IMG/VR virus record: IMGVR_UViG_647533158_000005
Length of the DNA stretch: 44,739 bases
Origin: a virus
Taxonomy: Duplodnaviria > Heunggongvirae > Uroviricota > Caudoviricetes
Reading direction: 5' to 3' (one strand)
Under the pieces are notes generated by a model. It did no database searches, was not told where the DNA came from, and worked only from the letters and a program-made list of their open reading frames with translations. The position numbers and the translations under genes are program-made. Numbering within the stretch: the stretch's first letter is position 1; every line of letters begins with the position of its first letter. Of this stretch, positions 18,004 to 42,000 are shown one piece after another.

Positions 18004-19944
18004 ATGGCGTTTAAACATTACGATCTGGTTTCTGCCAGTAGCTGTGATGAACTGCAAAAAAAACTGGCAGAAAAAATAAGTGAAGGGTGGCAGCCATATA
18101 GTTCGCCGTTTACTTCGTATGACGATAACGGGATGAAGTTTATTCAGGCTGTTGCCGCAGAAGGTGAAGTCAGGGTTCCTGTTGAAGTTCCTGATGACGG
18201 TGATGGTTCACAGACCACAATTACCTCTGGTGCACCTGACTATTACTACGTGGTGGTACTCGCCGGCCAGTCCAACGGGATGGCCTACGGTGAAGGGCTT
18301 CCGTTACCGGATTCATTTGACCGTCCTGAACCGCGAATTAAACAACTGGCACGCCGCAGCACTGTGACGCCGGGCGGTACGCTGTGTAAATATAACGACC
18401 TTATTCAGGCAGACCACTGCCTGCATCATGTGCAGGACATGAGCGGGATAAACCACCCGAAAGCTGACCTGAGTAAAGGGCAGTATGGCTGTGTCGGTCA
18501 GGGGCTGCATATTGCCAAAAAACTTCTGCCTTATATTCCGCAGAATGCCGGGATACTTCTGGTTCCCTGCTGTCGTGGTGCTTCGGCATTCACCACCGGG
18601 GATGACGGCTCATTCAGTGAGGTCAGCGGTGCTTCCGCTGATTCTTCACGCTGGGGAGCCGGTAAACCCCTGTATCAGGACCTGCTCAGTCGCACCAGAG
18701 CGGCGCTGGCGAAGAACCCGAAAAATAAACTTCTGGCTGTGGTATGGATGCAGGGAGAGGCAGACCTTGCTTCAGGAAGTCAGCAGCATAATGGTTTATT
18801 CACAGCCATGGTTCAGCAGTTCAGAACCGACCTGTCTTCGCTTGCTGCGCAGTGCGTAAGTGGAAATGCTGCCACGGTGCCGTGGATTTGTGGTGATACC
18901 ACGTATTACTGGAAAAACACGTATGCCACGCAGTATGAAACAGTCTATGGCGCATATAAAAATCTGACCGCACAGAATATTTTCTTTGTGCCGTTCCTGA
19001 CGGATGAGAATGGACAGAACACGCCAACGAATGCTCCGGCGGAAGACCCGGATATTGTGGCTGTCGGGTATTACGGTGCGGCATCCCGTACCCAGGGCAG
19101 TTTTGTCTCCACACAGCGTGACAGCCATTTCAGCTCATGGGCACGCAGGGGCATCATTTCTGACCGTCTGGCCTCCGCTATTCTGCTCCATGCAGGGCGC
19201 ACGGCTGAACTGATGGGCGGGCAGGCCGTGACACCACCGGATGAGAAGCCGTCACCTGACACCCCGTCAGCGGACGGGAAATCAATGACAACGCTGCTTT
19301 CTTACCGGGCATCGGAGTCAGGCGGAGCACTGAAGTCACAGGGATGGGCGGCTGCCGGTGGGAGTGCCATTATTGTTGATGATGCCGGTGCCAGCGGGGG
19401 CAAGGCGCTGAAGCTGACAAAACAGACCGGAAAGTCATGGTTTATGCAGCATGATGCCGGTAATGGTGCTGACCTGCTGGAAAAAGGTGGCCTTGTCAGC
19501 TGTCGTTTTAAACTTGATGGCGCGCTTACGGCTAATCAGTACGCACTGGCGCTGTACTGGCCGGTTTCTTCGCTGCCTCAGGGCGTCACACTGGAAGGTA
19601 ATGCCGGTCATAACCTGCTGGCATCGTTTTACGTTCAGAGCGATGCCACAGACCTTAACGTGATGTACCACAAGGGTAATCCGGACCAGAACACGAAGCT
19701 GGGTTCATTCGGTGCATTTAATAACGAGTGGCATACGCTGGCATTCCGTTTTGCCGGTAATAACAGCATTCAGGTGACGCCGGTGATTGATGGTAAGGAC
19801 GGGACACCGTTCATGCTGTCGCAGTCTCCGGTAGGGACACTGGCGGCAGACAAGTTACGCCTGACAGATTTAACCAGTACGGCAACATATCCGGTGCTGA
19901 TTGACAGCATTTTGGTGGAAGTGAATAACCCGTCAGCAGGATAA
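18004..19944 (+). CDS. Prophage sialate O-acetylesterase-like protein (NanS-p family, SGNH/SASA domain)
   Basis: 646-aa ORF with GAGGA Shine-Dalgarno; VVLAGQSNG motif typical of SASA/SGNH esterases; size and position (upstream of lysis genes) match NanS-p of Stx phages. Confidence 0.75.
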   Translation: MAFKHYDLVSASSCDELQKKLAEKISEGWQPYSSPFTSYDDNGMKFIQAVAAEGEVRVPVEVPDDGDGSQTTITSGAPDYYYVVVLAGQSNGMAYGEGLPLPDSFDRPEPRIKQLARRSTVTPGGTLCKYNDLIQADHCLHHVQDMSGINHPKADLSKGQYGCVGQGLHIAKKLLPYIPQNAGILLVPCCRGASAFTTGDDGSFSEVSGASADSSRWGAGKPLYQDLLSRTRAALAKNPKNKLLAVVWMQGEADLASGSQQHNGLFTAMVQQFRTDLSSLAAQCVSGNAATVPWICGDTTYYWKNTYATQYETVYGAYKNLTAQNIFFVPFLTDENGQNTPTNAPAEDPDIVAVGYYGAASRTQGSFVSTQRDSHFSSWARRGIISDRLASAILLHAGRTAELMGGQAVTPPDEKPSPDTPSADGKSMTTLLSYRASESGGALKSQGWAAAGGSAIIVDDAGASGGKALKLTKQTGKSWFMQHDAGNGADLLEKGGLVSCRFKLDGALTANQYALALYWPVSSLPQGVTLEGNAGHNLLASFYVQSDATDLNVMYHKGNPDQNTKLGSFGAFNNEWHTLAFRFAGNNSIQVTPVIDGKDGTPFMLSQSPVGTLAADKLRLTDLTSTATYPVLIDSILVEVNNPSAG

Positions 19945-20083
19945 AAAAAATGCCGCCGGGAAAGGGAAACAAGGAGAAAAACCGGCGGCAAAGGTTGTCA
20001 CATCCAAAGCAAAACATGCAGGACGCTTTTTTAACCAACAGGTATTAACGATGTCAACACCATATCAATAACTGGGAGGGATA

Positions 20084-20266
20084 ATGACATTTTTACAGCT
20101 TATTTTATTGTATTTCTGCACGGTGGTGTGTGCGTTATATCTGGTGAGTGGCGGATATAAGGTAATACGTAATTATGTCCGCCGCAAAATTGATGATGCA
20201 GCGGCAGAGAAAGTTAAATCCGCATCATCATCCACGACGCAGTCAGTTAACCAGCCCCTGCCATAA
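20084..20266 (+). CDS. Small membrane protein (60 aa)
   Basis: GGGAGGG Shine-Dalgarno; one N-terminal hydrophobic helix. Confidence 0.4.
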   Translation: MTFLQLILLYFCTVVCALYLVSGGYKVIRNYVRRKIDDAAAEKVKSASSSTTQSVNQPLP

Positions 20267-20300
20267 CGGCGGGGGTTTTGTTTAAGAGAGGAACGAGTTT

Positions 20301-20684
20301 ATGGCAGAAGTGAAAAACACGGGACTGGTCACGACAGAGGTACTGAAACAGGCGCTGTCAGCGCAGGTGGTGCTGAATGCTGTGGAAGCACAGGTAAGAC
20401 AAATCATCAGTAAACAGATTGATGAGGAAGTAAGGGGGGCACTTGCCGGTCTGACGGCGGCGACGCCCGGTGATACTGGTGTGGCGGAGACGCAGGAAAA
20501 ACCTGCGGTAACTGAAAATGCGGCTGCTGCGTCCACCGCAGGCACGGGAACATCACCGGAGCCGGGAACGGATACTTCCGGAACAGAGGCGCATAGTGGC
20601 ACTGCCACTACGACAGGCGGTGAAGCGACAGACAATGGTACTGCGGGGAGCGAGGGTATGGCGGAAGCGCAGCCTTTGCCATAA
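20301..20684 (+). CDS. Hypothetical protein with low-complexity Thr/Gly/Ala-rich C-terminus
   Basis: 127-aa ORF with AGAGGA Shine-Dalgarno immediately upstream of the holin gene. Confidence 0.45.
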
Positions 20685-20749
20685 GCATCCCTGTGTTGCA
20701 GGAAAACGTGGCTCCCGTCATCAGGCGGGAGTGTTACGGAGCGGGGATT

Positions 20750-20962
20750 ATGAAGATGGATAAACTGGCAACAGGTGTGTCCTATGGTTCATCGGCGGCA
20801 GGAACGGGTTACTGGCTGTTTCAGTTGCTGGATAAGGTGACGCCTTCACAGTGGACGGCGATAGGCGTGCTGGGGAGCCTGCTGTTTGGTCTGCTGACAT
20901 ACCTGACGAACCTGTATTTCAAAATTAAAGAAGACCGACGCAAGGCGGCGCGGGGAGAGTAA
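20750..20962 (+). CDS. S: Class II holin (phage 21 S-like pinholin) with dual-start motif
   Basis: 70-aa product [13 protein letters not shown]...[33 protein letters not shown] matches S21; Met-Lys-Met dual start. Confidence 0.85.
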
Positions 20963-20966
20963 AGCG

Positions 20967-21281
20967 ATGAAGAAAAAATATGAACTGGTTGTTAAAGGGA
21001 TAACTAATTACGGGGATAAGATTACTGTTACTGTGAAGCCGGAAGGTGACTGGCAAGCGTCGCTGTTGTCGCAATATGTGGTGATTGATCTTGAACGTGT
21101 TGAAGGTGCCCCGCTGGAATTTTACGAAGCGGAGGCGAAAAAACAGGCGAAGCAGTTTTTCATGGATATTGCTGTCGGGTTACGTGAAGGGGATGACCTG
21201 CTGACAGAAAAACGCCTCCGTTCAGAGGCGCTGTACACTATAAAAATTAACAGCTCAGATAACACGATTGCTGGTTGTTAG
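20967..21281 (+). CDS. Hypothetical protein inserted between holin and endolysin
   Basis: 104-aa ORF starting 5 nt after the holin stop; no recognisable motif. Confidence 0.45.
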   Translation: MKKKYELVVKGITNYGDKITVTVKPEGDWQASLLSQYVVIDLERVEGAPLEFYEAEAKKQAKQFFMDIAVGLREGDDLLTEKRLRSEALYTIKINSSDNTIAGC

Positions 21282-21517
21282 CCTTTTGTTTCAGTTGGCT
21301 TTCCAATATCTTTCATTGGTAGCAGCATTTCCAGATTGCTTTTGATATATGGATTATTTACATGTTCATTTAATTGATGAATGATTCCATTTTTTTCATT
21401 CTGGTCCAGTACAGAAAATATTACTGTAATCATATATTTAAGAGCTTCAATTTCTTTTGCTGTTGAGGAAGGAGATGAGCAGTCCACTGCAATATTAATC
21501 ATAGCTTCTTTTTGCAT
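21278..21517 (-). CDS. Hypothetical small protein (79 aa), antisense to lysis operon
   Basis: GAGGA Shine-Dalgarno 7 nt upstream of ATG; very AT-rich; 3' end overlaps the 20967..21281 gene by 4 nt. Confidence 0.35.
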   Translation of the reverse strand: MQKEAMINIAVDCSSPSSTAKEIEALKYMITVIFSVLDQNEKNGIIHQLNEHVNNPYIKSNLEMLLPMKDIGKPTETKG

Positions 21518-21647
21518 ATAAAATCCTCAGATGGGGTAGCTCAGCCAACCACCCGGATACTTAACTGGAACACCAGTGTCGCACTACTGGCGGGTGAAGA
21601 TTTAACATATCCAGGGATTCGGAACCGATAAATCCTGATAAATATCC

Positions 21648-22181
21648 ATGAACGCAAAAATCAAATACGGCCTGTCGGCTGCCGTTCTGGCGCTGATTGC
21701 CGCAGGTGCTTCTGCGCCTGAAATCCTCGACCAGTTTCTGGATGAGAAAGAAGGCAACCACCTGACGGCATACCGTGACGGTGCCGGGATATGGACTATC
21801 TGCCGTGGTGCCACCCGGGTGGATGGCAGACCAGTAGTCCCCGGCATGAAGCTGACGAAGGAAAAATGCGCTCAGGTTAATGCCATTGAACGTGACAGGG
21901 CGCTGGCGTGGGTGGAGAAAAACATCAAAGTGCCACTGACTGAACCGCAGAAAGCGGGGATTGCGTCGTTCTGTCCGTACAACATCGGGCCGTCGAAATG
22001 CTTCACCTCAACGTTTTACCGGAAGCTGAACGCCGGAGACCGGAAAGGTGCATGTGCTGAAATCCGTCGCTGGATATATGACGGCGGTAAAGACTGCCGG
22101 AACCACTCAAATAACTGTTACGGGCAGGTGTCGCGGCGTGACCAGGAAAGTGCGCTGGCGTGCTGGGGAATTGATGAATGA
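21648..22181 (+). CDS. R: Endolysin, phage lysozyme with N-terminal SAR (signal-anchor-release) segment
   Basis: 177-aa ORF; hydrophobic Ala/Gly-rich N-terminus ([15 protein letters not shown]) followed by lysozyme-like catalytic region ([20 protein letters not shown]); followed by Rz/Rz1. Confidence 0.85.
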
Positions 22182-22645
22182 ATCGTATCTTAGCCGGAGT
22201 GGCAGTTGTCCTCCTGGTGGCCTGCGGTGCGCTGTGGCTGGCAACAGACCACTACCGGGATAACGCCATCACCTACAAGGCGCAGCGCGATAAAAAAGCC
22301 AGTGAACTGAAGCTGGCGAACGCCACCATTACTGACATGCAGCAGCGCCAGCGTGATGTTGCTGCACTCGATGCAAAATACACGAAGGAGTTAGCCGATG
22401 CGAAAGCTGAAAATGAAACTCTGCGCGCTGATGTTGCCGCTGGTCGCCGCAGCCTGCGCGTCAACGCCACCTGCGTGTCCACCACAGACAAAACCACCGG
22501 AACCGCCAGCATGGATAATGCAGCCCGCCCCAGACTGGCAGACGCCGCTGAATGGAATTATTTCACCCTCAGAGACAAGTTGAAAACGATGCAGGCGCAA
22601 CTGGAAGGGGCGCAGGCATATATCCGTACTCAGTGTCTGAAATAA
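22178..22645 (+). CDS. Rz: Rz-like inner-membrane spanin
   Basis: 155-aa ORF overlapping the endolysin stop; N-terminal transmembrane helix then coiled-coil-like region; contains embedded Rz1 frame. Confidence 0.8.
22398..22583 (+). CDS. Rz1: Rz1-like outer-membrane lipoprotein spanin (embedded in Rz, +1 frame)
   Basis: 61-aa ORF wholly inside Rz; signal peptide with lipobox-like Cys, Pro-rich mature region. Confidence 0.65.
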
Positions 22646-26723: not shown

Positions 26724-28228
26724 TGGCAATTAGTGATGATGTGATTGGTTTTTTCTCGCCTGGCTGGAAGGCAGCGCGATTACGCTCAAGGGCGTTAATT
26801 ATGGCCTATGAGGCCGTGAAACCCACCAGGACGCATAAAGCCAGGCGGGAAAACCGTTCTGCCGATCAGCTCAGTAAATACGGTGCGGTTTCCCTGCGCG
26901 AGCAGGCCCGCTTTCTGGATATCAATCATGACCTGGTGATAGGCGTGTTTGACAAGCTGGAGGAGCGGGTGATTGGTGCGAAGGGGATCACCGTTGAGCC
27001 TCATCCGGTGATGAAAAACGGGGAGATTGCGGCGGAGCTGGCAGCGGATATCCGACGGCTGTGGGCGGAATGGTCTGTCAGTCCGGATGTGACCGGACAG
27101 TACACCCGCCCCATGCTGGAGCGTCTGTTGCTGCGTACCTGGTTGCGTGACGGGGAAGTGTTTGCGCAGATGGTCAGTGGTGCGGCAAACGGTCTTAAGC
27201 GGTCTGCCGGTGTGCCTTTCTGGCTTGATGCGATGGAGCCGGATTTTGTACCCATGCGCAGTGATGAGTCTGCCGGACTGAATCAGGGCGTTTTTCTGGA
27301 TGAGTGGGGCAGGCCGAAAAAATATCTGGTTTACAAAAGTTATCCGGTTTCCGGGATACAGAGTGATACCAAAGAGATCGCCGCAGACAAAATGGTCCAT
27401 CTGAAATTCACCCGCCGCCTGCACCAGACGCGTGGTGCGTCCATGTTGTCCGGTGTGATGGTGCGTATCAGTGCGCTTAAGGAATATGAAGATGCCGAAC
27501 TGACAGCGGCGCGTATTGCTGCGGCACTGGGGCTGTATATCCGTAAGGGTGACGGACAGGATTACGACGAACAGGGGGCAGACAAAAAAGAAGAGCGGGA
27601 AGTGCATATCACTCCGGGCATTATCTATGACGATTTGCGCAAGGGTGAGGATATCGGCATGGTCAAATCCGACCGTCCTAATCCCAATCTTGAAAATTTT
27701 CGTAACGGTCAGCTGCGTGCGGTGGCGGCAGGCAGTCGTCTGAGCTTTTCCAGTACCGCACGCAACTACAACGGCACCTACAGTTCACAGCGGCAGGAGC
27801 TGGTCGAGTCCACCGACGGTTACCTTATCCTGCAGGACTGCTTTATTGGCGCGGTAACCCGCCCGGTGTACCGTGCATGGCTGAATATGGTGGTTGCTGC
27901 CGGTCTGCTGAAAATCCCGTCTTGCCTGGATATGAAGACGTTATATAACGCGACATATTCCGGTCCGGTGATGCCGTGGATAGATCCGGTTAAGGAGGCT
28001 GAAGCCTGGCGGATACAGATCCGGGGTGGTGCCGCGACGGAATCAGACTGGGTACGTGCCGGTGGACGTCATCCGGATGAGGTTAAACGTCGCCGCAAGG
28101 CTGAAACTGAGGAAAACCGCAGACTGGGGCTGGTCTATGATACTGACCCCGTCAACGACAAAGGAGGCAACAGTGCCGGAACTGAACAACAGCGTCAGCA
28201 GGCCACCGACAGCCAGCATGAAGAATAA
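26723..28228 (+). CDS. Portal protein
   Basis: 501-aa ORF directly after terminase/W, before the protease-capsid gene; size and order typical of a lambdoid portal. Confidence 0.8.
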   Translation: MAISDDVIGFFSPGWKAARLRSRALIMAYEAVKPTRTHKARRENRSADQLSKYGAVSLREQARFLDINHDLVIGVFDKLEERVIGAKGITVEPHPVMKNGEIAAELAADIRRLWAEWSVSPDVTGQYTRPMLERLLLRTWLRDGEVFAQMVSGAANGLKRSAGVPFWLDAMEPDFVPMRSDESAGLNQGVFLDEWGRPKKYLVYKSYPVSGIQSDTKEIAADKMVHLKFTRRLHQTRGASMLSGVMVRISALKEYEDAELTAARIAAALGLYIRKGDGQDYDEQGADKKEEREVHITPGIIYDDLRKGEDIGMVKSDRPNPNLENFRNGQLRAVAAGSRLSFSSTARNYNGTYSSQRQELVESTDGYLILQDCFIGAVTRPVYRAWLNMVVAAGLLKIPSCLDMKTLYNATYSGPVMPWIDPVKEAEAWRIQIRGGAATESDWVRAGGRHPDEVKRRRKAETEENRRLGLVYDTDPVNDKGGNSAGTEQQRQQATDSQHEE

Positions 28229-30197
28229 ATCCTGGTTCAGGATGCAGGCGGGTGGTCAGGGTGAGGCGGATATTTATATTTATGACGAGATTGGTTTCTG
28301 GGGAGTTACCGCGAAGCAGTTTGTCTGCGATCTGAATGCTCTGGGTGATATCACCCACATTAATCTCCATATCAACTCACCGGGTGGCGATGTCTTTGAA
28401 GGCATCGCCATTTTTAATGCCCTGAAAAATCAGGGGGCGACCATTACCGTGTATGTGGATGGCGTTGCCGCATCGATGGCATCCGTGATTGCGATGGCCG
28501 GTGATACGGTCATTATGCCGGAAAATGCTTTCATGATGATCCATAAGCCATGGGGCTTCAGTGAGGGGGATGCTGAGGATATGCGCAGTTATGCCGATCT
28601 GCTGGATAAAATCGAATCGGTACTGTTGCCAGCCTATGCGCAAAAAACAGGAAAAACCACCGATGAAATTGCCGCCATGCTGGCGGATGAGACCTGGATG
28701 TCAGGTGCCGAGTGTCTGGCACACGGATTTGCTGACCAGGTGACGCCAGCCGTTAAGGCAATGGCATGTATTCAGTCAAAACGTACAGAGGAATTTAAAA
28801 AGATGCCGGAATCCATCCGAAACATGATTACTCCGCCACGCAACAGTGCCCCGCGTGATACCACAGTGACAATCCCTGCACCGGCGGTAACAGAACCATC
28901 ACCGGTACCGGCAGTGTCTGATGAGGAGACCATTCGCGCTGGTGTCCTGGCTGAGCAGAAAGCCCGCATGTCAGGCATTAACGATCTGTTTGCCATGTTT
29001 GGCGGTCGCTATCAGACGCTTCAGGCACAGTGCGTGGCCGATCCTGACTGTTCGCTGGAAATGGCCCGTGAACGTCTGCTGAATGAAATGGGTAAGGAAT
29101 CCTCACCGACTAACAAAACGGCACCGGCTCATATTTATGCCGGAAACGGTAATTTTGTTGGAGACGGGATCCGCAAGGCGCTGATGGCCCGCGCCGGATT
29201 TGAGACTACGGAGAAGGATAATGCCTATAACGGTATGACCCTGCGTGAATGCGCCCGCATGTCACTGACGGAACGGGGGATCGGGGTGGCCAGTTATAAC
29301 CCTATGCAGATGGTGGGGCTGGCGCTGACGCACAGTACCTCGGATTTTGGCAATATTCTACTGGATGTGTCGAATAAGGGGCTGATCCAGGGCTGGGAGG
29401 AATCAGAAGAAACCTTCCAGAAATGGACCCGCAAAGGTCGCCTGTCTGACTTCAAAACGGCATACCGTGTGGGGATGGGGGGATTTGGCTCTCTGCGTCA
29501 GGTGCGGGAAGGGGCGGAGTACAAATACATCACCACCTCTGACCGTAAGGAGACCATTGCACTGGCGACCTACGGGGAAATTTTCTCCATCACCCGTCAG
29601 GCCATTATCAATGATGACCTGAATATGCTGGTGGATGTGCCGATGAAGATGGGGCGTGCCGCGAAAGCGACGATTGGTGACCTGGTCTACAAGGTGTTAA
29701 CGGATAACCCGAAACTGTCAGACGGTAAGGCGCTGTTCCATGCCGATCACAAGAATATTGCCACGGGCGGGATCTCCGTTTCGGGGCTGGATGCGGCACG
29801 TCAGATGATGCGTCTGCAGAAAGAGGGCGATCGTGCGCTGAATATCCGTCCGGCCTTTATGCTGGTGCCGGTGGCACTGGAGACAGTGGCAAACCAGACC
29901 ATCAAATCGGCCAGTGTGAAAGGGGCGGATGCAAACGCCGGTGTCATTAACCCCATCCAGAACTTTGCTGAAGTGATTGCAGAAGCGCGTCTCGATGCGG
30001 CAGATCCGAAAACCTGGTATCTGGCTGCGGCACAGGGGACCGACACCATTGAAGTGGCCTGGCTGGATGGTGTGGACACGCCCTACATTGACCAGCAGGA
30101 GGGTTTCACCACTGACGGTATCGCCACAAAAATCCGTATCGATGCCGGTGTGGCACCGCTTGACTGGCGTGGGCTGGTGCGTTCAGCCGCTGCCTGA
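28218..30197 (+). CDS. Prohead protease (ClpP/S49-like) fused to major capsid protein
   Basis: ATG at 28218; N-terminal ClpP-like region (...HINSPGGDV...VAASMASVIAMAGD...MIHKPWG), Ala/Pro-rich linker, C-terminal major-capsid-like domain; fusion architecture as in 933W-type head modules. Confidence 0.8.
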   Translation: MKNKSWFRMQAGGQGEADIYIYDEIGFWGVTAKQFVCDLNALGDITHINLHINSPGGDVFEGIAIFNALKNQGATITVYVDGVAASMASVIAMAGDTVIMPENAFMMIHKPWGFSEGDAEDMRSYADLLDKIESVLLPAYAQKTGKTTDEIAAMLADETWMSGAECLAHGFADQVTPAVKAMACIQSKRTEEFKKMPESIRNMITPPRNSAPRDTTVTIPAPAVTEPSPVPAVSDEETIRAGVLAEQKARMSGINDLFAMFGGRYQTLQAQCVADPDCSLEMARERLLNEMGKESSPTNKTAPAHIYAGNGNFVGDGIRKALMARAGFETTEKDNAYNGMTLRECARMSLTERGIGVASYNPMQMVGLALTHSTSDFGNILLDVSNKGLIQGWEESEETFQKWTRKGRLSDFKTAYRVGMGGFGSLRQVREGAEYKYITTSDRKETIALATYGEIFSITRQAIINDDLNMLVDVPMKMGRAAKATIGDLVYKVLTDNPKLSDGKALFHADHKNIATGGISVSGLDAARQMMRLQKEGDRALNIRPAFMLVPVALETVANQTIKSASVKGADANAGVINPIQNFAEVIAEARLDAADPKTWYLAAAQGTDTIEVAWLDGVDTPYIDQQEGFTTDGIATKIRIDAGVAPLDWRGLVRSAAA

Positions 30198-30284: not shown

Positions 30285-30611
30285 ATGGCTAAAAATTTTG
30301 TACAGGACGGCACCACCATTGAACTGGTGAATGCCGGGGATCAAAGCATTCTGAGCGGTGCCGCTGTGGTGGTCGGCAGCATGGTGGCGGTGGCCATTAC
30401 CGATATTCCTGCCGGGGAGACCGGTGACGGGTTCGCCGAAGGCGTGTTCCTGCTGCCAAAACAGTCTGCCGACGATATTCAGGCCGGTGTGGCGGTTTAT
30501 CTGAAGGACGGGACTGTGCAGTCTGCCGCAGACGGCGCTGTGGCGGCGGGAATGACATGGGAGCATGCGCCGTCAGGCACCACCACGGTGGCGGTCAAAA
30601 TCAATGCCTGA
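30285..30611 (+). CDS. Small head-associated protein (DUF2190-like)
   Basis: 108-aa Ala/Gly/Val-rich ORF immediately after capsid gene. Confidence 0.45.
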   Translation: MAKNFVQDGTTIELVNAGDQSILSGAAVVVGSMVAVAITDIPAGETGDGFAEGVFLLPKQSADDIQAGVAVYLKDGTVQSAADGAVAAGMTWEHAPSGTTTVAVKINA

Positions 30612-37919: not shown

Positions 37920-38994
37920 AAACGGGGGCTGAAGCCATCCGCGCACNNNNNNNNNNNNNNNNNNNNNNNNNNNNNNNNNNNNNNNNNNNNNNNNNNNNNN
38001 NNNNNNNNNNNNNNNNNNNNNNNNNNNNNNNNNNNNNNNNNNNNNNNNNNNNNNNNNNNNNNNNNNNNNNNNNNNNNNNNNNNNNNNNNNNNNNNNNNNN
38101 NNNNNNNNNNNNNNNNNNNNNNNNNNNNNNNNNNNNNNNNNNNNNNNNNNNNNNNNNNNNNNNNNNNNNNNNNNNNNNNNNNNNNNNNNNNNNNNNNNNN
38201 NNNNNNNNNNNNNNNNNNNNNNNNNNNNNNNNNNNNNNNNNNNNNNNNNNNNNNNNNNNNNNNNNNNNNNNNNNNNNNNNNNNNNNNNNNNNNNNNNNNN
38301 NNNNNNNNNNNNNNNNNNNNNNNNNNNNNNNNNNNNNNNNNNNNNNNNGGCGTCACCGGGCATGGCGCGAATCTGCCTTTACGGGGATTTACAACGATTT
38401 GGCCGCCGCATCGACCTGCGTGTGAAAACGGGGGCTGAAGCCATCCGCGCACTGGCCACACAGCTCCCGGTGTTTCGTCAGAAACTGAGCGACGGCTGGT
38501 ATCAGGTACGGATTGCCGGGCGGGACGTCAGCACGTTCGGGTTAACGGCGCAGTTACATGAGACTCTGCCTGATGGCGCTGTGATTCATATTGTTCCCAG
38601 AGTCGCCGGGGCCAAGTCAGGTGGCGTATTCCAGATTGTCCTGGGGGCTGCCGCCATTGCCGGATCATTCTTTACCGCCGGAGCCACCCTTGCAGCATGG
38701 GGGGCAGCCATTGGGGCCGGTGGTATGACCGGCATCCTGTTTTCTCTCGGTGCCAGTATGGTGCTCGGTGGTGTGGCGCAGATGCTGGCACCGAAAGCCA
38801 GAACTCCCCGTACACAGACAACGGATAACGGCAAACAGAACACCTATTTCTCCTCACTGGATAACATGGTTGCCCAGGGCAATGTTCTGCCGGTTCTGTA
38901 CGGTGAAATGCGCGTGGGGTCACGCGTGGTTTCTCAGGAGATCAGCACGGCAGACGAAGGGGATGGTGGTCAGGTTGTGGTGATTGGTCGCTGA
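37817..38994 (+). CDS. I: Tail assembly protein I (interrupted by assembly gap and duplicated flank)
   Basis: Starts MAATHTLPLASPGMARICLYGDLQRFGRR as lambda gpI; after the gap the same 104 nt recur and the frame continues to ...QVVVIGR; removing gap plus duplicate gives a 223-aa protein. Confidence 0.75.
37947..38348. other. Assembly gap (402 N)
   Basis: Run of n; identical 104-nt sequence on both sides (37843-37946 = 38349-38452). Confidence 0.95.
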
Positions 38995-39054: not shown

Positions 39055-42000
39055 ATGGGTAAAGGCAGCAGTAAGGGGCATACCCCGCGCGAAGCGAAGG
39101 ACAACCTGAAGTCCACGCAGCTGCTGAGTGTGATCGATGCCATCAGCGAAGGGCCGGTTGAAGGTCCGGTGGATGGATTAAAAAGCGTGCTGCTGAACAG
39201 TACGCCGGTGCTGGACAGTGAGGGGAATACCAATATATCCGGCGTCACGGTGGTGTTCCGGGCCGGTGAGCAGGAGCAGACACCGCCGGAGGGATTTGAA
39301 TCCTCCGGCTCCGAGACGGTGCTGGGTACGGAAGTGAAGTACGACACGCCGATTACCCGGACCATCACGTCTGCAAACATCGACCGTCTGCGCTTTACCT
39401 TCGGTGTGCAGGCACTGGTGGAAACCACCTCAAAGGGTGACAGGAATCCGTCGGAAGTCCGTCTGCTGGTTCAGATACAACGTAACGGTGGCTGGGTGAC
39501 GGAAAAAGACATCACCATTAAGGGCAAAACCACCTCGCAGTATCTGGCCTCGGTGGTGGTGGGTAACCTGCCGCCGCGCCCGTTTAATATCCGGATGTGC
39601 AGGATGACGCCGGACAGCACCACAGACCAGCTGCAGAACAAAACGCTCTGGTCGTCATACACCGAAATCATCGATGTGAAACAGTGCTACCCGAACACGG
39701 CACTGGTTGGCGTGCAGGTGGACTCGGAGCAGTTCGGCAGCCAGCAGGTGAGCCGTAATTATCATCTTCGCGGGCGCATTCTGCAGGTGCCGTCGAACTA
39801 TAACCCGCAGACACGGCAATACAGCGGTATCTGGGACGGAACGTTTAAGCCGGCATACAGCAACAACCCGGCCTGGTGTCTGTGGGATATGCTGACCCAC
39901 CCGCGCTACGGCATGGGGAAACGTCTTGGTGCGGCAGATGTGGATAAATGGGCGCTGTATGTCATCGGCCAGTACTGCGACCAGTCGGTGCCGGACGGCT
40001 TTGGCGGCACGGAGCCGCGCATCACCTGTAATGCGTACCTGACCACACAGCGCAAGGCGTGGGATGTGCTCAGTGATTTCTGCTCGGCGATGCGCTGTAT
40101 GCCGGTATGGAACGGGCAGACGCTGACGTTCGTGCAGGACCGGCCGTCGGATAAGGTGTGGACCTATAACCGCAGTAATGTGGTGATGCCGGATGATGGC
40201 GNNNNNNNNNNNNNNNNNNNNNNNNNNNNNNNNNNNNNNNNNNNNNNNNNNNNNNNNNNNNNNNNNNNNNNNNNNNNNNNNNNNNNNNNNNNNNNNNNNN
40301 NNNNNNNNNNNNNNNNNNNNNNNNNNNNNNNNNNNNNNNNNNNNNNNNNNNNNNNNNNNNNNNNNNNNNNNNNNNNNNNNNNNNNNNNNNNNNNNNNNNN
40401 NNNNNNNNNNNNNNNNNNNNNNNNNNNNNNNNNNNNNNNNNNNNNNNNNNNNNNNNNNNNNNNNNNNNNNNNNNNNNNNNNNNNNNNNNNNNNNNNNNNN
40501 NNNNNNNNNNNNNNNNNNNNNNNNNNNNNNNNNNNNNNNNNNNNNNNNNNNNNNNNNNNNNNNNNNNNNNNNNNNNNNNNNNNNNNNNNNNNNNNNNNNN
40601 NNNNNNNNNNNNNNNNNNNNNNNNNNNNNNNNNNNNNNNNNNNNNNNNNNNNNNNNNNNNNNNNNNNNNNNNNNNNNNNNNNNNNNNNNNNNNNNNNNNN
40701 NNNNNNNNNNNNNNNNNNNNNNNNNNNNNNNNNNNNNNNNNNNNNNNNNNNNNNNNNNNNNNNNNNNNNNNNNNNNNNNNNNNNNNNNNNNNNNNNNNNN
40801 NNNNNNNNNNNNNNNNNNNNNNNNNNNNNNNNNNNNNNNNNNNNNNNNNNNNNNNNNNNNNNNNNNNNNNNNNNNNNNNNNNNNNNNNNNNNNNNNNNNN
40901 NNNNNNNNNNNNNNNNNNNNNNNNNNNNNNNNNNNNNNNNNNNNNNNNNNNNNNNNNNNNNNNNNNNNNNNNNNNNNNNNNNNNNNNNNNNNNNNNNNNN
41001 NNNNNNNNNNNNNNNNNNNNNNNNNNNNNNNNNNNNNNNNNNNNNNNNNNNNNNNNNNNNNNNNNNNNNNNNNNNNNNNNNNNNNNNNNNNNNNNNNNNN
41101 NNNNNNNNNNNNNNNNNNNNNNNNNNNNNNNNNNNNNNNNNNNNNNNNNNNGGACAGCAGGGCGAACCGGCATCGGTATCGTTCCGGATTGCCGCACCGG
41201 CAGCGCCTGCCACCATTGAACTGATACCGGGGTATTTTCAGATAACGGCGGTCCCGAAACTGGCGGTATATGACCCGACGGTGCAGTTTGAGTTCTGGTT
41301 CTCGGAAAAGCGGATTGCGGAAATCAGGCAGGTTGAAACCACAGCCCGCTATCTTGGCACGGCGCTGTACTGGATAGCCGCCAGTATCAATATCAGGCCA
41401 GGCCATGATTATTATTTTTACGTTCGCAGTGTTAACACCGTGGGTAAGTCGGCATTTGTGGAGGCCGTCGGTCAGCCCAGCGATGATGCGGAAGGTTATC
41501 TTAATTTTTACAAGGGGCTGATTAATAAAACGCATCTTGGCAGGGAACTGCTGGAGAATTTCGAACTGACAGAGGATAACGCCAGCAGGCTTGATGAGTT
41601 CACGAAACAGTGGAAAGACGCTAACGATAAATGGAATGCCATGTGGGGCGTCAAAATTGAGCAGACCGAAGACGGTAAACATTATGTTGCCGGGATTGGC
41701 CTCAGCATGGAGGAGACGGAAGAAGGAAAACTGAGCGAGTTTCTTGTCGCCGCCAACCGTATCGCGTTTATTGACCCGGCAAACGGTAACTCAACGCCGA
41801 TGTTTGTGGCACAGGGCGATCAGATATTCATGAACGACGTGTTCCTGAAACGCCTGACGGCTCCCACCATTACCAGCGGCGGTAATCCCCCTGCATTTTC
41901 CCTGACTCCGGACGGAAAGCTGACCGCTAAAAATGCGGATATCAGCGGCAGTATCACCGCCAGTTCAGGCACGCTCAACAATGTGACGATAAACCAGGAC

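Follow-up and report, generated by a model that had tools for sequence, protein, structure and literature searches.

Shiga toxin (Stx) phages of Escherichia coli carry, between the Q/tRNA region and the lysis genes, a gene for NanS-p, a sialate O-acetylesterase of 645-646 amino acids (aa) with a three-domain architecture, as in z1466/L0105 of 933W, ORF42 of VT2-Sakai and gp84 of phi24B (vb_24B_21). In phi24B, gp84 is an abundant virion protein: a hexamer of its N-terminal DUF1737 domain, anchored by Tyr42, plugs the centres of the facet hexons, and the enzyme part is later clipped off the capsid (bioRxiv 10.64898/2026.04.10.717836). Functional nanS-p genes are also found in stx-free lambdoid prophages of EDL933 and O104:H4 (Saile et al. 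2016, 2018, via PMC8065619 and PMC10462455). The seven (versus ten) prophage NanS-p alleles of EDL933 and the five of O104:H4, including those from non-Stx prophages, are all active esterases (PMC8065619), and they support growth on 5-N-acetyl-9-O-acetylneuraminic acid (Neu5,9Ac2) (PMC8065619, PMC10462455). Since 2016-2018, it has been known that non-Stx prophages carry NanS-p and that it contributes to growth when sialic acid is O-acetylated (PMC8065619, PMC10462455). The chromosomal relative NanS (YjhS, 3PT5) is a single-domain protein, with a chain of 337 residues in 3PT5. Here, we analyse a nanS-p-type gene in IMG/VR virus record IMGVR_UViG_647533158_000005, a stretch of 44,739 nucleotides (nt) that we call the window. 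An earlier note on this DNA had read the gene as a NanS-p-like esterase retained in an stx-negative lambdoid prophage. Our analysis makes it very probable that the gene encodes an intact member of the NanS-p family of prophage-borne sialate O-acetylesterases, in an apparently complete stx-negative lambdoid E. coli prophage alike in situation to those of EDL933 and O104:H4. The allele is divergent, its kind and its situation are both known already, and the only thread that leads beyond known facts is a co-variation between its DUF1737 domain and the head genes of the phages that carry it.

The open reading frame (ORF) spans exactly 18004..19944 on the + strand, starts with ATG behind a Shine-Dalgarno-like AGAGGA located 8 nt 5′ of the start codon, and encodes 646 aa. 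Its N-terminal domain (aa 1-55; 18004..18168, +) is a DUF1737 domain with a "SYDDNG" loop variant, matched by Pfam PF08410 at aa 3-53 (E 8.6e-12, 45.2 bits, cut-off 24) and by phrog_2036. The SASA/NanS-like catalytic core (aa 77-394; 18232..19185, +) is identified by its motifs and, in a PDB sequence search, by its match to E. coli NanS/YjhS (3PT5, E 1e-116). The earlier note had made its reading depend on a SASA match in a profile search, and PF03629 was matched at aa 83-288 (E 1.1e-12, 48.5 bits, cut-off 24.8). The C-terminal lectin-like jelly-roll domain (DUF6645, aa 428-646; 19285..19941, +) is a putative carbohydrate-binding module; Pfam PF20350 covers aa 492-609 (E 1.5e-68), and the PDB search pairs aa 428-642 with 6YP6, the C-terminal domain of NanS-p (E 4e-96). 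The lectin-like fold and proposed carbohydrate-binding role of this domain were described by Franke et al. 2020, as summarised in PMC8065619. Over its full length the protein matches phrog_143 with 1060 bits, while an NCBIfam search matched no model. A second DUF1737 or SASA copy was sought within the window and none was found. An exact-sequence look-up showed that the same 646-aa protein is deposited at NCBI as an E. coli "DUF6645 domain-containing protein" (WP_000874239.1 / EFE63829.1), encoded on contig GG749133.1 of assembly GCA_000163155.1; further E. coli proteins are 94-96% identical to it.

Alignment with the NanS-p proteins of Stx1 and Stx2 phages, the check proposed in the earlier note, gave ~65% identity over the full length (DUF1737 51%, SASA 70%, C-terminal domain 68%). 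Both the 646-aa SGNH/SASA-motif protein and its assignment to the NanS-p type hold. Architecture, length and gene position agree between the window and these phages, as do the catalytic Ser/His and QGE residues. The proteins differ in the DUF1737 loop, where the window has Tyr39 in "SYDDNG" and Stx-phage NanS-p has Tyr42 in "STAGYG", and in the SSP linker motifs, which are absent from the window protein. The core of chromosomal NanS aligns end to end with window aa 77-394 and shares the GQSN, QGE and SHFS motifs, but the window protein adds DUF1737 and DUF6645 and is encoded in a prophage late operon; judged by these extra domains and this context, it is not chromosomal NanS. A non-stx prophage of O157:H7 strain 86-24 has the same gene order as the window, and its NanS-p allele is 74% identical to the window protein, with an "ITPYT" DUF1737.

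The active site was read with the motif definitions for 3PT5 from PMC10792757 and the description of the SASA-type oxyanion hole from PMC9487903. Block I is GQSN at residues 88-91 (Gln89, Ser90), Block III is MQGE at 249-252 (QGE 250-252) and Block V is SHFS at 374-377 (His375); the Block V Asp is absent, exactly as in NanS. Ser90, Gln89, QGE 250-252 and His375 are invariant in two alignments of relatives. From these motifs, Ser90 and His375 are the predicted nucleophile-base pair, and Gln89 with QGE forms the predicted oxyanion arrangement specific to SASA enzymes.

Several observations weigh against an active enzyme. Block II of the window protein is RGASAF, with Ala193, whereas NanS and Stx-phage NanS-p have RGGSAF (Gly122 in 3PT5 numbering). 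The single O157:H7 allele checked, that of the 86-24 non-stx prophage, likewise has Gly in an RGGSAF motif, and an assayed allele with Ala or Ser at Block II was sought and none was found. The SASA class of the window, delimited at 87% nt identity or more, comes chiefly from E. coli of commensal or animal origin, its carriers being commensal, mouse, pig and human isolates, and at this identity it is absent from the classic enterohaemorrhagic strains that are the source of the assayed alleles. The ORF could be a decaying or inactive remnant in which the Block II Ala abolished activity and the frame is merely still undisrupted, and the change from G122 to A193 does fall on a canonical SGNH position. 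We regard such decay as very improbable. The 646-codon ORF is intact, the ratio of nonsynonymous to synonymous substitution rates (dN/dS) is ~0.17 in the SASA domain, every other catalytic residue is invariant, and the contribution of Block II to the oxyanion hole in SGNH hydrolases is made by a backbone NH (PMC9487903). Among the 120 closest cluster representatives the Block II position holds Gly in 77, Ser in 23 and Ala in 20, about one third being non-Gly; the 43 with Ser or Ala argue for tolerated variation. Ala193 is probably such a tolerated change, given the purifying selection on the SASA domain (dN/dS 0.17-0.18). By homology to its assayed relatives, the window protein is most likely a putative sialate O-acetylesterase. 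Its SASA domain would strip Neu5,9Ac2 and mucin sialoglycans of their 9-O-acetyl groups and of O-acetyl groups at other positions, the C-terminal lectin-like module would aid the SASA domain on its substrates, and the de-acetylated Neu5Ac would then be usable by surviving E. coli siblings.

The earlier note had further suggested that the gene is selected independently of the toxin, and two lines of evidence, dN/dS and the prevalence of nanS-p loci, bear this out. Between the window gene and its stx-negative relatives L005, L002 and L003, dN/dS is 0.19, 0.19 and 0.26, respectively; by domain, the SASA value given above stands beside 0.18-0.23 for the C-terminal domain. nanS-p is under purifying selection between stx-negative prophages. 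In a set of 5,426 complete E. coli genomes, 1,052 contain DNA coding for DUF6645, the C-terminal domain specific to NanS-p, at 2,979 places altogether and with a median of 3 per carrying genome; stx was found in the same set at 1,103 places in 759 genomes, so that NanS-p loci are ~2.7-fold more numerous than stx loci. Upstream of nanS-p, stx is present in 20 of the 82 distinct IMG/VR loci that have at least 3 kb of upstream sequence. NanS-p without stx is the rule and not the exception, as previously published.

In the window, tblastn with Stx2A and Stx2B of VT2-Sakai gave nothing below E = 1 (best 1.4 and 1.7); Stx1 was not queried directly, and the same stx2 references did pick up stx1-type genes at ~55% identity in other loci. 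Upstream of nanS-p, in the slot where Stx phages have stx, the window carries an iraM-like moron gene of 111 aa (17348..17683, -), which aligns over 100% of its length, at 84% aa identity, with the annotated anti-adapter IraM of E. coli M8. Together these results support the description of the prophage as stx-negative; judged by its sequence, it is not an Stx phage. In the source contig, the called iraM-like gene (108 aa) has a PmrD-family Pfam match on record, and an hmmscan of the 111-aa ORF returned no Pfam match. The cargo of this slot varies among related prophages; in that of M8 it is lpxR together with iraM. An iraM-like gene lies 5′ of nanS-p in 7 of the 82 related loci, one of which also carries stx.

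The word "retained" in the earlier note, which implies an ancestor that bore stx, fared less well. Two stretches, 17097-17172 (76% identity over 76 nt) and 17219-17243 (96% over 25 nt), resemble the spacer just 3′ of stx2B in VT2-Sakai and end at a strong terminator-like hairpin (17272..17289, +; GC stem and T run). A search for stx remnants gave no more than this ~150 nt of spacer-like sequence (17097-17243), too little for a loss of stx to be deduced, and the slot holds the iraM-like gene. Instead of being left over from stx, the stretches may mark the place where the cargo slot has its conserved right-hand boundary.

The gene has the same late-operon position as in Stx phages, the order in the window being Q, tRNAs, cargo, nanS-p and lysis genes. 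VT2-Sakai and the Stx2d phage Stx2_112808 (LC567830.1) share this order, but with stx2AB between the tRNAs and nanS-p; in Stx2_112808, stx2AB stands where the window has the iraM-like gene. This phage is otherwise close to the window: the methylase gene and first tRNA gene are ~90% identical in nt, the terminase, portal, ClpP-MCP (a ClpP-protease fusion to the major capsid protein, MCP) and tail genes ~86%, and the MCP is 95.6% identical in aa. The two also share the DUF1737 loop class SYxDxG, whereas the SASA and C-terminal domains of Stx2_112808 are of the 933W class and 70% identical to those of the window.

It is this N-terminal domain that leads beyond what has been described. An AlphaFold2 (AF2) model of the window protein, built from a 27-sequence alignment, has a mean predicted local distance difference test score (pLDDT) of 39.8 and is usable for the N-terminal domain only. 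In the N-terminal domain it places a strand at residues 5-11, a helix at 14-26 and strands at 36-40 and 43-52, with pLDDT of 66-83. This order fits the one helix and three antiparallel strands described for DUF1737 of phi24B (bioRxiv 10.64898/2026.04.10.717836). We then gathered 146 loci, of which 38 non-redundant ones with a DUF1737-type NanS-p and an identifiable head module were used for an analysis of co-variation. ClpP-MCP heads, the type of the window (H1, n=16), go with "SYxDxG" loops in 15 loci and with "ITPYT" in 1. All 12 lambda-like heads (H2a and H2b) go with "ITPYT", and all 6 podovirus heads of the 933W type (H3) with "AGYG", the class of phi24B; of the 4 HK97-like heads (H4), 3 go with "ITPYT" and 1 with "AGYG". 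Head type and N-terminal clusters agree with an adjusted Rand index (ARI) of 0.53-0.54, a value reached by 0 of 2000 label permutations. For the SASA or C-terminal clusters the ARI with head type is -0.06 to 0.05, although these segments lie nearer the head genes, and one SASA class and one C-terminal class are each seen with all five head types. Plain linkage was considered as the cause of the association between DUF1737 and head and is unlikely: the SASA and C-terminal segments, though placed nearer the head genes than DUF1737 is, do not show it.

On the basis of the phi24B cryo-electron microscopy preprint and this co-variation, we tentatively propose, at a little under even confidence, that DUF1737 is a swappable capsid adaptor matched to the head module, and that most lambdoid E. 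coli prophages, among them ordinary siphoviruses with T=7 heads like that of the window, display NanS-p on the virion as an esterase of mucus glycans. As part of this proposal, ClpP-MCP heads, lambda-like/HK97-like heads and 933W-type heads would be served by at least three DUF1737 classes, and Mu-like phages would use an unrelated N-terminal domain. DUF1737 would tether the enzyme to the phage's own capsid, in the window presumably to the ClpP-protease/scaffold/major-capsid fusion (28026..30197, +; Pfam CLP_protease and Phage_capsid_4), and NanS-p would then belong to the virion programme instead of being a toxin-linked accessory. The framing of the earlier note, a host accessory, may be incomplete, since the N-terminal domain behaves like a head-specific adaptor.

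Several points count against tethering. Virion association is known for phi24B only, a T=9 podovirus, in which the domain binds a hexon at the facet centre, a position absent in a T=7 head. The window phage is a lambda-tailed siphovirus whose head is not of the phi24B/933W T=9 type: its MCP is fused to ClpP (Phage_capsid_4), its portal and terminase belong to the lambda family, and nothing in it matches the Sakai terminase. Tyr42 is not conserved in place, the window loop being SYDDNGMK with Tyr39, and the "SISSP"/SSP processing motifs are absent from both linkers of the window protein, whose sole SSP is at residue 33, with a PSP at 416. The classes and heads are not one-to-one, as "ITPYT" occurs with both lambda-like and HK97-like heads and L030 and L141 are mismatched; the 38 loci share ancestry, and their independence is therefore overstated by the permutation test. 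The phage also encodes a separate head-decoration protein (30285-30611). The mismatched locus L030 (7751-9257), the only one to combine a ClpP-MCP head with "ITPYT", has a portal gene frameshifted at about codon 342; it is probably a defective prophage, no longer under selection for a match to its head.

NanS-p could instead be a pure lysogenic-conversion moron, a soluble public-good enzyme released from a few lysed cells that feeds the surviving lysogens, with DUF1737 having no virion role here. Publications on EDL933 and O104:H4 take this view (PMC8065619, PMC10462455), and it suits a gene that lies in the moron-rich interval from Q to lysis, beside iraM here and lpxR with iraM in M8, in a phage whose head type differs from that of phi24B and which has its own decoration protein. 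It leaves unexplained, however, why a 55-aa N-terminal domain should be under selection, be swapped as a unit and track the head module, and DUF1737 of phi24B directly binds the capsid (bioRxiv 10.64898/2026.04.10.717836). We therefore consider a moron without any capsid role quite possible, if on balance doubtful. A third role, in which the enzyme, virion-bound or free, de-O-acetylates bacterial surface polysaccharides (O-antigen or capsule) or mucus to the benefit of the phage and not of the lysogen, appears improbable. The possibility is raised in PMC8065619, and the phi24B preprint suggests mucus adherence and the overcoming of mucin inhibition (bioRxiv 10.64898/2026.04.10.717836), but neither cites experimental support for it. 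SASA-like stretches do match tail-protein PHROGs weakly (phrog_25867, E 1.4e-06; phrog_4201, E 2e-04); against this, the catalytic core is ~70% identical to NanS, a sialate-specific enzyme, and a capsid location is ill-placed for action near the receptor.

The swapping of domains is visible in pairwise comparisons. Relative to the prophage of E. coli M8, a mouse isolate (L003), which has a lambda-like head, the window protein is 51% identical in DUF1737, 94% in SASA and 95% in the C-terminal domain; relative to the prophage of E. coli 2017.17.03CC, which has the same terminase type as the window, the values are 96%, 92% and 85%. In sliding 60-nt bins, identity to M8 is 40-61% across 17818-18237, which covers the 5′ untranslated region, DUF1737 and the linker, and 95-100% in most bins of 18478-20100, with dips to 78-92% near 18838 and at 19138-19377. 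By this pattern, the nanS-p region is a recombination mosaic.

A NanS form of 680-692 aa without DUF1737 was found in loci L007, L008, L012-L024, L076 and L077 (for example L013, 531-2591). It begins with an unrelated N-terminal domain of ~100 aa ("MSDSKWKMLSAMPGEF...") that has no Pfam or PHROG match. The gene adjoins a Mom-family gene in the two loci checked for it (L013 and L019) and a cytosine-methyltransferase-like ORF in L076, and thus lies at the right end of Mu-like prophages. The ORFs downstream in L013 and L077 share their first ~45 residues and then turn into J-like or tape-measure-like sequence; because of this, the Mu-like elements appear to be inserted in tail genes of other prophages. 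A Citrobacter rodentium protein of this form shares a 90% cluster with the window protein.

In essence, the window holds a single lambdoid prophage, apparently complete, whose siphovirus tail is of the lambda type and whose head is built from a ClpP-MCP fusion. Its lambdoid nature, also stated in the earlier note, is upheld by the integrase (1-1131, -), Q, a P21-type holin, lysozyme, Rz, and lambda-type terminase, portal and tail genes. The Q antiterminator (12963..13784, +; Pfam Antiterm PF03589, E 2e-50), predicted to control the late operon including nanS-p, is followed just 3′ by a terminator-like hairpin (13864..13882, +) that is a candidate tR′. Two ORFs of unknown function lie between this hairpin and the methylase gene. 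One ORF directly downstream of Q and the terminator, of 237 aa (14028-14741, +), has no Pfam match and is conserved in place in the M8 prophage, with the annotation "hypothetical". After the DNA methylase gene (15230-16288), ARAGORN identifies two tRNA genes, a tRNA(CAT) and a tRNA-Lys-like gene (16329..16484, +), at the site of the ileZ/argN/argO cluster of Stx phages. Most related phages have tRNA(CAT), Arg(TCG) and Arg(TCT) at that site instead.

The tRNA-Lys(UUU)-like gene (16407-16484) has an 8-nt anticodon loop (CTTTTTAT), for which ARAGORN gives the anticodon "tttt". An otherwise identical gene with one T fewer, a normal tRNA-Lys, is present in locus L009 (7978-8054). Either the extra T stems from a sequencing error in the homopolymer, or the tRNA is a natural one with an expanded anticodon loop like that of +1-frameshift suppressors. 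In the anticodon stem, the tRNA(CAT) genes of the window and L009 differ by a compensatory A-T/G-C pair.

Between the tRNA genes and nanS-p lies an AT-rich spacer of 1.5 kb. Besides the hairpin at the boundary of the cargo slot, it contains a second strong terminator-like hairpin (16727-16744, +). A simple promoter scan of the + strand from 16821 to 18003 found no sigma-70-like site, which is weak evidence and gives no sign of a dedicated nanS-p promoter. Downstream of nanS-p, the lysis region (20084..22645, +; Pfam and gene calls) comprises DUF1378, DUF826, the P21-type holin (20693-20962), DUF1327, lysozyme (21648-22181) and an Rz-like gene (22178-22645). Lambda-type terminase and portal genes precede the ClpP-MCP fusion, and lambda-like tail genes follow it. 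Two runs of N, at 37947-38348 (402 bases) and 40202-41151 (950 bases), fall inside genes for tail assembly and host specificity (J-like) and are well clear of the late-regulatory slot; long ORFs that span these runs in the ORF list are masking artefacts.

nanS-p accordingly stands in a Q-dependent late operon, between the tRNA/moron slot and the holin-lysozyme-Rz genes. The protein has no N-terminal hydrophobic stretch (maximum hydropathy over 12 aa, 0.23), and hence no signal peptide. Transcripts of nanS-p in Stx2a phages increase upon induction (PMC10462455). We infer that NanS-p of the window is most likely made on induction and released by lysis, because it lacks a signal peptide and its gene is located behind Q and several terminators with no recognisable promoter of its own. 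On prophage induction, Q would let RNA polymerase read through the upstream terminators, so that NanS-p would be made with the late genes, and the enzyme would exit the cell via phage lysis, the lysis region being its presumed release route.

The prevalence of nanS-p without stx warns against the use of nanS-p as a marker for Stx phages. If the capsid-adaptor proposal is true, the persistence of NanS-p without stx would be explained by the virion programme and not by toxin cargo. About one fifth of complete E. coli genomes, with their median of three NanS-p loci per carrier, would then carry prophages whose particles display a mucin-modifying enzyme, which would bear on the behaviour of phages in mucus as well as on the persistence of nanS-p.

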